A stretch of 64,000 nucleotides of DNA from a virus. Taxonomy: Duplodnaviria > Caudoviricetes. Where the stretch lies: IMG/VR virus record IMGVR_UViG_3300020450_001133. The stretch is one strand, 5' to 3'. The notes below the pieces were generated by a model that saw nothing but the letters and a program-made list of their open reading frames with translations, was not told the DNA's origin and searched no databases. Each line of letters starts with the position of its first letter. Positions within the stretch are counted from its first letter, which is position 1. A program made the translations under genes and the position numbers. Positions 30,007 through 32,986 of this stretch are shown here, in pieces.

Positions 30007-30036
30007 ATTATACTACCATTTCCTTTGAATTGTCAA
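30007..30036 (-). promoter_or_regulatory. sigma70 promoter for uvsW embedded in 3' end of the TonB gene; leaderless spacing
   Basis: TTGACA-N18-TATAAT-acagt-ATG(30001). Confidence 0.7.
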
Positions 30037-31728
30037 CATAATTTGTCTTCCACGATTGTTATAACCTGGAAGTACTTCTACTTCTTCATCTAAGATGTTG
30101 TCTATTGTTAATGCTAAGTCAACATCATTAGCAAAAGTTTTAATGTATCTAAAAGACAAGTTTTGCAAGTCCTCTAATTCTGCTCCGTCATATGGACCAG
30201 GTATTCTTTCAAAATTACCTCTATAGGTAATATCAAATTCATGACTACCAAAGGCTTGATTCCATTTAACAACACCAACATACTTAGGCACTCTTGCTTG
30301 TTCTGTATCTGTATATTTCAGTGTAAGCATAAAGTTACCAAACCATTGCGAGTATCTAATACCTAGTGTGTCGTATGCACCAGTATTGTAATACTTTGCA
30401 TTGTAGTATTCTGTTGTGGTTGTTGTAATTGCATTACCATCTTCATCATAAGTTACAGTTGTAACATCATTACTTCCACCTGGTGCATATTCTATTGCTT
30501 CTTCAAAGTCATATTTGAAAATACTTAACACACCAAATCCTATTTCGTAACCAACACCTTCTTCAGGCAATAAGTCTAGATTTGCATCAACCCAACTATC
30601 ACCATGTAATTCATAAAGTGTAGGTCTTCTATAACTGTTACCAACATTTAAAAAGAATGGACCACTTTCTAAACCAAATCTTAATGCGTTTTGGTCTTCA
30701 TTTCCAACTCTAAAACCAAAGTTGTATTTCATGGCAAAGTCGGCATTAATATTTAAGTATGCACCGTAATTGTCTCTGCTATGTTCTTCATTGTTTAGAC
30801 TTTGATACTTCTCATGACTTGCGTCTACACCATATGCGATTTGCAATTTGTTAGATAGGTTAGTTTGGTCACCAACTCTCAAATAGTCTGTGCTACTTTC
30901 GTTAGCATATGACATCCATTCGCCTGTGTAATAATCTGCTTTGTCATGTGTTCTACCCAATGTAAAATATTCATTGTTTAATGCAATATTATATTTTTCA
31001 CCATCTTGTTCACAATTATTAGACTGATTAAAACTAGAATCATAACAGTTGTCATAATCATAACTGTAATCAGTGTAGTCCATTGTTATCCTAAAATCTT
31101 GTACATCAAAATTTAACTTTGCGTTTCTATTTGTGTACCAGTCACTTTCAGTATTATCATTTCTTACACTATCTTGGTTTATTTCCATTGCAGTATATTG
31201 AAACCATTTTGCAGGTGCAACACTAACCATTTTATGATCCTGTGAACCTAAGATTGCAGTAACACCTTGTTCAATGTTATCTTTAATCAATATAGTACCA
31301 GCAATACTACCACTACCATACACAACACTATTAGCACCAGAAATAATTTTAACTTCTTGCCCTGTTGCTAGTTCATTACCAAAATCATACCATGCACTAC
31401 CAGGCAAGTTTGCTGGTATGCCGTTTTTGTAAACAGCGGTATGTACATTTTGTGCACCACGTTCGTTATATCCTTGGAAAGCACCATAACCACCAGCAGT
31501 CCATGTATGACCGGGTAGTAATGCTCTTATAAAGGAATTACCTTTTAGTGGGTCTGCTTTTATAGTTGTGCTTTGTTGTCCCACTACCACAACTTCTTCT
31601 ATCTCCTCTGCCTGTGCTTTTGGACTTAAACATACTGCTACTGAGAACAATATCATCCATACAAAAGCCGCATACATAGGAGAAAAATTGATATGGAAGT
31701 TCCAATCAATCTTACTTCTATTACTCAT
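30013..31728 (-). CDS. TonB-dependent outer-membrane receptor, BtuB-like (571 aa)
   Basis: Signal peptide ending AQA; TonB box EEVVVVG; plug RGAQNVHTAVYKNG...SVVYGSGSIAGTI; C-terminus NILDEEVEVLPGYNNRGRQIMLTIQRKW. Confidence 0.85.
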   Translation of the reverse strand: MSNRSKIDWNFHINFSPMYAAFVWMILFSVAVCLSPKAQAEEIEEVVVVGQQSTTIKADPLKGNSFIRALLPGHTWTAGGYGAFQGYNERGAQNVHTAVYKNGIPANLPGSAWYDFGNELATGQEVKIISGANSVVYGSGSIAGTILIKDNIEQGVTAILGSQDHKMVSVAPAKWFQYTAMEINQDSVRNDNTESDWYTNRNAKLNFDVQDFRITMDYTDYSYDYDNCYDSSFNQSNNCEQDGEKYNIALNNEYFTLGRTHDKADYYTGEWMSYANESSTDYLRVGDQTNLSNKLQIAYGVDASHEKYQSLNNEEHSRDNYGAYLNINADFAMKYNFGFRVGNEDQNALRFGLESGPFFLNVGNSYRRPTLYELHGDSWVDANLDLLPEEGVGYEIGFGVLSIFKYDFEEAIEYAPGGSNDVTTVTYDEDGNAITTTTTEYYNAKYYNTGAYDTLGIRYSQWFGNFMLTLKYTDTEQARVPKYVGVVKWNQAFGSHEFDITYRGNFERIPGPYDGAELEDLQNLSFRYIKTFANDVDLALTIDNILDEEVEVLPGYNNRGRQIMLTIQRKW

Positions 31729-31757
31729 TCTGTCTCCAGGTTATTAGTTCTATTATA

Positions 31758-31785
31758 ATTATACGTCTTATTGTGGAAAAGTCAA
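31758..31785 (-). promoter_or_regulatory. sigma70 promoter for TonB receptor
   Basis: TTGACT-N16-TATAAT; SD GGAG before ATG 31728. Confidence 0.7.
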
Positions 31786-31796
31786 GTTAAAAATGT

Positions 31797-31829
31797 AATA
31801 AAGTGACGCCCGGAAGAACTCCGGGCGTC
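31797..31829 (-). terminator. intrinsic terminator
   Basis: GACGCCCGGA-gttct-TCCGGGCGTC followed by ACTTTATT. Confidence 0.8.
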
Positions 31830-31832
31830 TAA

Positions 31833-31882
31833 GGTGCTCTCTTGGGGGATGACTAACGTTTGAGCACCAGGGAACCGTTAGC
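31833..31882 (-). ncRNA. candidate H-type pseudoknot RNA element
   Basis: GCTAACG/CGTTAGT and GGTGCTC/GAGCACC crossing 7-bp stems. Confidence 0.45.
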
Positions 31883-31896
31883 AATATATATTTATT

Positions 31897-32925
31897 TTAT
31901 ATTGCACCCTTCATGCAAGTTGTTCTGGCTAATGACTGCCAATTTTTAGGCTCCATCTTCTTAAGGTCTGAAATCTTAAGAACCATACGCAAACTAACTT
32001 CACGAAGTCTATCTGCGTTATCAAGCATGAAGTCGATTACTTCTTTTTCGCCTTCTTTACCGAACTTGTATTCTTCAAGCATACCGTCCCTGACAATTTG
32101 CTTGATTCGGATAAATTTATCCTTAATACTGTTCATTGTAAGATCCAAGTAGTGGCACCTAGACATAAGTGCTTCTAAGTGATCCTTAATCTTCTTACTA
32201 CGAACGTTTTCAAAATCAACGTTAGTAATAAAGATACAACCACCTTTAAACTCAAACCTATCAGGTATACCTTCTCTACGAAGTGCTTGGGACTCTGACT
32301 TCCAAGTAATGTATCTTTTCTTACCTGAATCAAGTGTAGCCTTAAGCATGTTCAAACATACTTCATCAAACAACACACTATCACAGTCATCAAATACTAA
32401 TATGTTACCAGGTGCAGAGTTGTTAAACAATGTCTGGAACAAACCAATTGGTGTTACAGAACCTTTTACAACTTCAGTCCTTGCAGGTTTACCAGCAACC
32501 TGAGTAAGCATGTCGTATTCTTCAAGAACAGTTTCAACACCAAACGACTTACCAACTCCTGGAGGGCCACTTACAATCATACCCCTTACAGTACCTTCTG
32601 CTACTGCATGAGTCATTCTATCAAGAATATCAAATCTTTCTTTGATTCTCTCAATAGCATCTTTTTCACTCTCTTCTTCTTTTGGAGTGTTGTCGATTTT
32701 AGCCTGCTCGGCGTATATTGCCGGAGTAACATATTCAAGGTCCTTAGTAGGATCTTCAATTAGCACTCGGATTTTATCGAACTTATCACCAAGAACTTCA
32801 CTTCCATTTACAGTAATGAAAGCACCTTTCTTGCCAATGTTTAAAGGTTTCAATACAGGGAAAACCATGTTTTCAATGGTATTCTTTCTGTAAGTACCGT
32901 GTTTTATTTTTACAAAGTTAGTCAT
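31897..32925 (-). CDS. AAA+ family ATPase (342 aa)
   Basis: GPPGVGKS, LVFDDCD, SRCHYL; start moved to MTNFVK using SD GGGAG. Confidence 0.8.
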   Translation of the reverse strand: MTNFVKIKHGTYRKNTIENMVFPVLKPLNIGKKGAFITVNGSEVLGDKFDKIRVLIEDPTKDLEYVTPAIYAEQAKIDNTPKEEESEKDAIERIKERFDILDRMTHAVAEGTVRGMIVSGPPGVGKSFGVETVLEEYDMLTQVAGKPARTEVVKGSVTPIGLFQTLFNNSAPGNILVFDDCDSVLFDEVCLNMLKATLDSGKKRYITWKSESQALRREGIPDRFEFKGGCIFITNVDFENVRSKKIKDHLEALMSRCHYLDLTMNSIKDKFIRIKQIVRDGMLEEYKFGKEGEKEVIDFMLDNADRLREVSLRMVLKISDLKKMEPKNWQSLARTTCMKGAI

Positions 32926-32958
32926 CTTTACTCCCGTTTTGTTTAACTTATACATACT

Positions 32959-32986
32959 ATTATACTTCTTTAGCGAGTAAAGTCAA
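32959..32986 (-). promoter_or_regulatory. sigma70 promoter
   Basis: AGG-TTGACT-N16-TATAAT. Confidence 0.7.

Follow-up and report, generated by a model that had tools for sequence, protein, structure and literature searches.

Antisense control of an mRNA by a sequence in its own 3'UTR (untranslated region) is known, to our knowledge, from a few bacterial mRNAs and not from phages of the kind studied here. In the early mRNA of phage T7, the unprocessed 3' end blocks the RBS (ribosome-binding site) of gene 1.1/1.2, a control that depends on an RNase III site, and in the CopA/CopT and RNAI/RNAII systems antisense control proceeds through kissing loops. In Staphylococcus aureus, the motif UCCCCUG in the 3'UTR of icaR pairs with the SD (Shine–Dalgarno) sequence of its own mRNA, which prevents ribosomes from loading and triggers RNase III through a site that the pairing creates (PMC3868564). 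Anti-SD-like octamers located hundreds of bases downstream have likewise been found to pair with the RBS in vivo, and such octamers are normally depleted from genes (PMC12697547). The element described in the present paper, located behind an early AAA ATPase gene of a marine T4-like giant phage, probably follows the same logic.

The element occupies positions 31797–31882 on the minus strand of the window, by which we mean the whole stretch of 64000 nt of phage DNA that was analysed. The original prediction, made from the letters of this DNA, had described two crossing 7-bp stems with one G-U pair in a GC-rich island, 14 nt after the stop codon of an AAA ATPase gene, directly upstream of a strong terminator and upstream of the promoter of a TonB receptor gene; on re-analysis this layout was found as described. 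The features of the locus, in the order of the minus strand, are as follows.

32959–32986, minus strand: sigma70-like early promoter of the AAA gene (TTGACT-16 nt-TATAAT)
32931–32935, minus strand: SD sequence GGGAG of the AAA gene
32917–32926, minus strand: target in the AAA mRNA, GAUGACUAAC, comprising the start AUG (32925–32923) and two codons
31897–32925, minus strand: AAA ATPase gene, T4 NrdC.10-like, PHROG 1250; 342 aa when counted from the probable start codon
31889–31896, minus strand: AATAAATA box of the same form as the late-gene boxes of the window; a start site would fall at approximately 31883/31882, the first base of S1
31876–31882, minus strand: 5' strand of stem S1, GCUAACG, predicted to pair with CGUUAGU at 31858–31852
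31869–31875, minus strand: linker L1, GUUCCCU, C-rich and conserved, with UCCC invariant
31862–31868, minus strand: 5' strand of stem S2, GGUGCUC, supported by folding and covariation
31852–31858, minus strand: 3' strand of S1, CGUUAGU, overlapping the seed complementary to the translation-initiation region (anti-TIR seed)
31845–31857, minus strand: anti-TIR seed, GUUAGUCAUCCCC, invariant across the window clade
31840–31851, minus strand: unpaired loop L3, CAUCCCCCAAGA, its 5' part conserved seed (toehold) and its 3' part variable
31833–31839, minus strand: 3' strand of S2, GAGCACC, supported by folding and covariation
31797–31829, minus strand: intrinsic terminator, a GC-rich hairpin of 9 bp (31829–31805) with a short U-rich tail
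31758–31785, minus strand: sigma70-like promoter after the terminator (TTGACT/TATAAT)
30013–31728, minus strand: Plug-domain (TonB-dependent-receptor-like) ORF, 3' of this promoter

S1 consists of six Watson–Crick pairs and one G-U pair, and S2, which crosses it, of seven Watson–Crick pairs; the loops L1 (7 nt), L2 (3 nt) and L3 (12 nt) are of lengths sterically feasible for an H-type pseudoknot. A spacer, UUA, separates S2 from the terminator hairpin, which is the sole strong terminator within 16 kb and has a weak U-tail in the window. The ATPase stop codon TAA is at 31899–31897, the 14 nt between it and S1 are AT-rich, and the GC content of the element is 0.55 compared with ~0.35 for the whole window. 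The 5' strand of S1 shares the core ACUAAC with the start region of the ATPase gene itself, and reads as an internal mimic of the target.

The best cultured relative of the AAA ATPase is that of PA5oct, with 49% identity. The longest ORF of the AAA gene begins at ATG 32955, only 3 nt past the −10 hexamer, and the promoter at 32986–32959 thus puts this ATG at or above the transcript start, leaving AUG 32925–32923 as the real start. Both the relatives and the SD sequence point to the same codon, making AUG 32925 the likely start of the 342-aa protein. On the other side of the element, the downstream gene differs among the relatives and usually has its own promoter. A Plug-domain gene was seen after the ATPase gene in several clades (loci L065–L069, L071, L072, L075–L078 and L080), and in the most distant clades it lies directly after the terminator with no intervening promoter, where read-through may feed it. 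In L007, L008 and L031–L033, the leader of the downstream gene, 3' of the post-element promoter, carries a GC-rich hairpin (GCAAACC...GGUUUGY).

The crossing-stem pattern by itself is not beyond chance and is common in AT-rich DNA: crossing 7-bp helix pairs of such geometry number 26 in the window compared with 10–16 per dinucleotide shuffle. As isolated hairpins, S1 and S2 have folding energies of −6.4 and −9.7 kcal/mol respectively, and the nested minimum-energy fold comprises S2 and the terminator, without S1. The case for a real element therefore comes from comparison and not from the pattern alone. A first set of 80 IMG/VR loci was retrieved with the ATPase protein, and the element was searched for using a covariance model built from the window element (E<1e-15). 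At this threshold, 57 IMG/VR loci (window excluded) carry the element, always in single copy and always directly 3' of the ATPase stop codon, and it is 75–94% identical among phages in which third codon positions are 54–64% identical.

Over 29 distinct sequences, 99.7% of the cells were paired, compared with ~40% in controls with slid partners. Compensatory changes were found at two pairs of S2 in these sequences and at three of its seven pairs once the next clade was added, which also revealed further covariation in an inner extension of S2; the terminator showed compensatory changes at two pairs, rising to five of nine with the next clade. For S1, one pair changed in a compensatory manner (9/28, G-C to A-U, seven sequences) and two changes were wobble-preserving; the first pair changed from G-U to A-U, and two sequences had a mismatch. 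Covariation across relatives, which the original prediction had named as a check, was thus good for S2 and the terminator and modest for S1, in the window clade alone; outside this clade S1 is absent. By these alignments S1 is real enough to keep, yet clade-specific and the least secure part of the structure.

Further structures were noted in some relatives. In a neighbouring clade (L057, L058, L062, L074, L145, L187, L190 and L202), an extra well-covarying hairpin lies just 5' of GUUCCCCC, with stems such as CCCAUA/UAUGGG, CCCUUAA/UUAAGGG and CUGUAA/UUACAG and a loop that contains TAAATA; its 3' strand could alternatively pair with the anti-SD loop. A next-clade pseudoknot (GGGU/ACCC) was considered and rejected as unproven, since its register varies by sequence and it competes with the well-covarying upstream hairpin. 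One lineage (L041:5031–5139 and L086) has an additional 22-nt hairpin inserted between S2 and the terminator.

No further copies of the element were found in the window or in ~900 kb of related loci, and scanning all viral contigs for its pattern gave no other occurrence, since four pattern matches in unrelated high-GC contigs were attributed to chance. An Rfam search, also proposed in the original prediction, returned no family match to the element: with the Rfam covariance models no family reached the gathering threshold there, the window yielding three tRNAs alone, and at E≤10 the region 31700–31960 gave just terminator-driven sub-threshold matches (rteR, 22.9 against 72 bits; RcsR1, 17.4 against 60 bits). 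The families covered include the preQ1, SAM-II/V, guanidine-III and cobalamin riboswitches, ribozymes and the known phage and marine motifs. A DNA search of GenBank phages gave no match, and the element is absent from the cultured relatives PA5oct, phiA8-29 and SUMAE. A tRNA-like end (CACCA after S2) was dismissed, as ARAGORN and the tRNA/tmRNA models found nothing there, and so was read-through or frameshifting past the ATPase stop codon, as the AT-rich spacer has, by eye, stops in all frames.

What the element does contain is a complement to the start of its own gene. Nucleotides 31857–31848 of the seed are a perfect 10-nt complement of 32926–32917 in the window, including the start AUG, and with one bulge allowed the seed/target duplex extends to up to 14 bp. 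A small hairpin (32930–32913) can be drawn with the target as its 8-nt loop. For the invariant 15-mer, the sole complement of at least 10 nt in 64 kb, on either strand, is the AAA start region, and among 107 candidate starts in the window the AAA gene alone has, in its 3'UTR, a complement of at least 9 nt to the start region of the same gene, low-complexity sequence excluded. For the L1 motif GGUUCCCY, no complement was found in its own mRNA or among the start regions of the window. The co-folding gain of the window pair relative to shuffles was weak (p ~0.075), and the pairing core UCCC/GGGA is common to any C-rich loop and strong SD sequence; specificity rests on the flanking bases. In the window, as in the other lineages with a short leader, S1 takes up six of the ten seed bases and leaves 4 nt of the complement exposed, and S1 and the full start-region duplex are therefore mutually exclusive. 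Where the leader is long, it is mostly the free part of the loop that pairs with the target.

Two related observations concern other loops. The terminator loop of many relatives (L012, L014, L022, L029, L042 and L053; e.g. L012:5095–5101) is AUCCCCU or ACCCCCU; AUCCCCU complements the gene's own SD sequence, GGGGAU, and is a possible second anti-SD loop, whereas the terminator loop of the window, AGUUCUU, is not complementary to the SD sequence. In the PA5oct homologue (L263, MK797984 248735–249889 plus flanks), AGUAGCAU lies between the SD sequence and the AUG and has its complement in a hairpin right after the stop codon. This 8-nt start/3' match was not accepted as the same element, as chance can explain a match of this length.

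All 47 distinct lineages from the first 76 loci keep 7–12 nt of start-region pairing, L053 being counted at 7 bp through one G-U pair that was spotted by hand and not by the scan. When the same loops were compared with 180 start regions of other genes from the same loci, the longest match was 7 nt (three of 180) and the mode was 4. The two sites have changed together at the level of clades (UGUGGGAGG/CCUCCCACA compared with GGGGAUGAC/GUCAUCCCC), with additional co-changes at the edges. In the distant clades, UGUGGGAGG lies in the 5'UTR, where a small hairpin displays it in a loop of 8 nt, and its partner CCUCCCACA lies in the 3' loop, located at or over the stop codon. In the window clade, the loop GUUAGUCAUCCCC is complementary to GGGGAUGAC(UAA), the SD sequence, in the long-leader members, and to AUGACUAAC, the start codon with two codons, in the short-leader members. 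The closing stem of the 5' partner hairpin covaries as well (UUGC/GCAA, GCC/GGC, AAUGU/ACAUU, UUUG/CAAA and UAC/GUA).

To test the prediction of co-change, a second set of 80 more distant loci was fetched independently with the protein of another member. The complement was again present, and edge co-changes were observed as GGGAGA/UCUCCC, GUGGGAGAAC/GUUCUCCCAC, UGCUGUGGGAG/CUCCCACAGCA and CUGUGGGAG/CUCCCACAG. In two lineages (L053 and L065), the pairing between the two sites is kept through G-U. The G-U pairs in S1 and between the two sites fit RNA of the minus strand, and not DNA. Separately, the long-leader lineages L003, L012, L018 and L029 have a covarying 5'UTR hairpin ~30–55 nt before the ATG (GUUAGUAAG/CUUAUUAAC and GUUAAUAAG/CUUGUUAAC) with the loop AAGGG.

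On this evidence we consider it probable that the element is a structured 3'UTR anti-RBS module that represses its own early AAA ATPase mRNA, acting either in cis or after release as a small RNA. It follows the stop codon and precedes the terminator of the message that it matches, and it carries a specific complement to its own start that appears to be kept by compensatory change, which places it in an icaR-like class. Starting from the structure, conservation, complementarity and co-evolution observed above, we infer that the two sites pair in vivo, that the pairing is repressive and that it may act in either mode. The S2 hairpin would serve as a scaffold for a large loop with a conserved C-rich part that would be antisense to the SD/start-codon region of the same mRNA, and the start region would itself be displayed in the loop of a small hairpin. 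Both partners lie on one early transcript, ~1 kb apart. As soon as transcription has reached the 3' end, the loops would kiss, the contact could extend to 10–14 bp and the duplex would occlude the RBS, so that translation of the ATPase would be shut off or capped. The contact may be intramolecular or intermolecular; in the latter case the terminator-ended 3' fragment would be a small RNA, which in the window could also arise from the abutting late-type promoter. In the window clade, S1 would turn the loop into an H-type pseudoknot in which CAUCCCC stays exposed as a toehold and GUUAGU is covered by an internal target copy, and S1 may thus act as a mask. Translation would then be largely limited to nascent mRNA, or be subject to feedback as 3' fragments accumulate. 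Since anti-SD-like sequences are normally purged from genes, a conserved and displayed anti-RBS sequence is likely to have been selected for regulation.

Compared with the systems described above, the phage element is most readily set beside icaR. Both have a C-rich UCCCC motif in the 3'UTR that complements the SD region of its own message, in both the choice between cis and trans is undecided (PMC3868564), and a block of ribosome loading would by analogy be the expected outcome in the phage. However, icaR belongs to a Gram-positive bacterium and the phage element to a marine T4-like giant phage; the icaR motif lies 260 nt past the stop codon, whereas that of the phage lies 40 nt past it, in a defined hairpin/pseudoknot beside the terminator. 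The phage pairing also reaches the start codon, and its partner is loop-displayed too. The icaR 3'UTR is species-specific, whereas the phage element is conserved and co-varies over many lineages; effects on RNase III and translation are described for icaR and are putative for the phage element. With the SdhX-type 3'UTR small RNAs (PMC6393394) the phage element shares a 3' fragment that ends at the terminator and has a conserved single-stranded seed, and with the C-rich-loop small RNAs of S. aureus it shares C-rich loops aimed at the SD sequence; it differs in that the sole target found is the parent mRNA, that processing or an own promoter is putative, and that the U-tail is weak in the window. 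In the type I toxin mRNAs (hok with fbi/tac, and aapA1 of Helicobacter pylori; PMC6733600), a 3'-terminal mRNA sequence also pairs with its own 5' translation signals and silences them, but this fold-back is relieved by 3' processing and is not loop-loop, and there is no toxin here. Silencing of an RBS by the 3' end of the same message is the feature in common with T7 early mRNA, where relief again comes from 3' processing and there is no loop-loop contact. As in CopA/CopT and RNAI/RNAII, two hairpin loops of 7–8 nt with perfect complementarity would nucleate the pairing; those of the phage, however, belong to a single transcript, with 1 kb between them, rather than being encoded by the two opposing strands of one stretch of DNA. 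The element is a new RNA family, absent from Rfam, that probably uses a known but rare principle.

The main competing reading is built on the late-type box that abuts the element. According to it, the locus is a stand-alone small-RNA gene in which a late promoter, AATAAATA, drives an ~85-nt RNA from S1 to the terminator. Late in infection this RNA would work in trans only, against the AAA mRNA and perhaps, by way of the second C-rich motif, against further targets. Late genes of the window carry [A/T]ATAAATA 5–9 nt before the ATG (40534, 43245, 44471, 56232, 58157 and 63937, minus strand), which suggests that late mRNAs of this phage have little or no leader, and the box at 31896–31889 matches these; the same type of box predominates before genes in the relatives' records (A form, 18 of 24), and in the next clade TAAATA occurs at a fixed distance from the element, inside the loop of the upstream hairpin. 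However, in most relatives from the window clade the box position reads ATAAGTA or a different variant, and the most distant clades have a hairpin over the stop codon and no box, so that a late promoter was rejected as a universal feature. What is universal is the 3'UTR position and the shared terminator, and no second target was found in the window. We therefore regard the stand-alone gene as unlikely; a separate late small RNA is possible in some phages, but not as the common denominator. The 3'UTR-derived RNA of the original prediction survives in the sense that a conserved structured RNA is present in the AAA mRNA 3'UTR, on the strand named, and may exist as an ~85-nt RNA, whereas the ligand switch and the antitoxin suggested as its functions are not supported. 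The nuclease-resistant element, also suggested there, is not required to account for the observations.

GC-rich structures at 3' ends protect mRNAs against 3' exonucleases, and an element that adjoins the only strong terminator in 16 kb might merely stabilise the message or aid termination; its complementarity to the start region would then be incidental, a relic of an old inverted duplication, for example. We find this improbable, as such a role needs no invariant unpaired bases and does not call for a seed and start region that co-vary across clades and at the duplex edges, and as anti-SD-like sequences are normally selected against (PMC12697547). A ligand-sensing riboswitch governing terminator read-through into the TonB-receptor-like gene, one of the functions originally proposed, would fit a pseudoknot with conserved loop bases beside a terminator and the promoter-less arrangement of the Plug gene in the most distant clades; yet no Rfam riboswitch was matched at E≤10, nothing was seen to pair alternatively with the terminator stem, the element tracks the upstream gene and not the downstream one, which varies and in most cases is served by a sigma70 promoter of its own, and the conserved loop bases are already accounted for by the start-region complement, which makes a riboswitch very improbable. 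The inverted repeats of 7–12 bp that bracket the ATPase gene could in principle work at the DNA level, for example as recombination sites, but both arms lie in the loops of RNA hairpins whose stems covary, G-U is tolerated, the target shifts between the SD sequence and the start codon, and neither an inverted arrangement nor a recombinase was found in 160 loci; there is very little chance that this reading is correct. The other proposed function, a type III antitoxin-like pseudoknot RNA, has in its favour the H-type shape alone: the element is in single copy with no tandem array, and its neighbours carry AAA, Plug and exonuclease domains with no ToxN/AbiQ-type endoribonuclease among them, so that this possibility is close to nil.

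Within the preferred reading of an anti-RBS module, we put forward a more specific scheme that is conceivable, if doubtful: a self-targeting RNA timer in giant marine T4-like phages, in which an early ATPase mRNA would carry its own antisense in a 3' pseudoknot, and the S1 decoy together with a late promoter at the 5' end of the element would switch it from a masked mRNA form to an active small RNA working in trans. If this were true, an early gene would be translated just while nascent and silenced for good once late transcription starts.

Taken together, our results would extend 3'UTR anti-RBS logic, the generality of which is under debate, to a virus, where it is conserved over many divergent lineages. 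The natural compensatory changes on both partners make this an unusually clean comparative case, with an RNA architecture that is defined by a loop-loop contact, a pseudoknot and a shared terminator. The element thus offers a testable handle on how large T4-like phages may keep an early protein of unknown function in check with no protein repressor involved.
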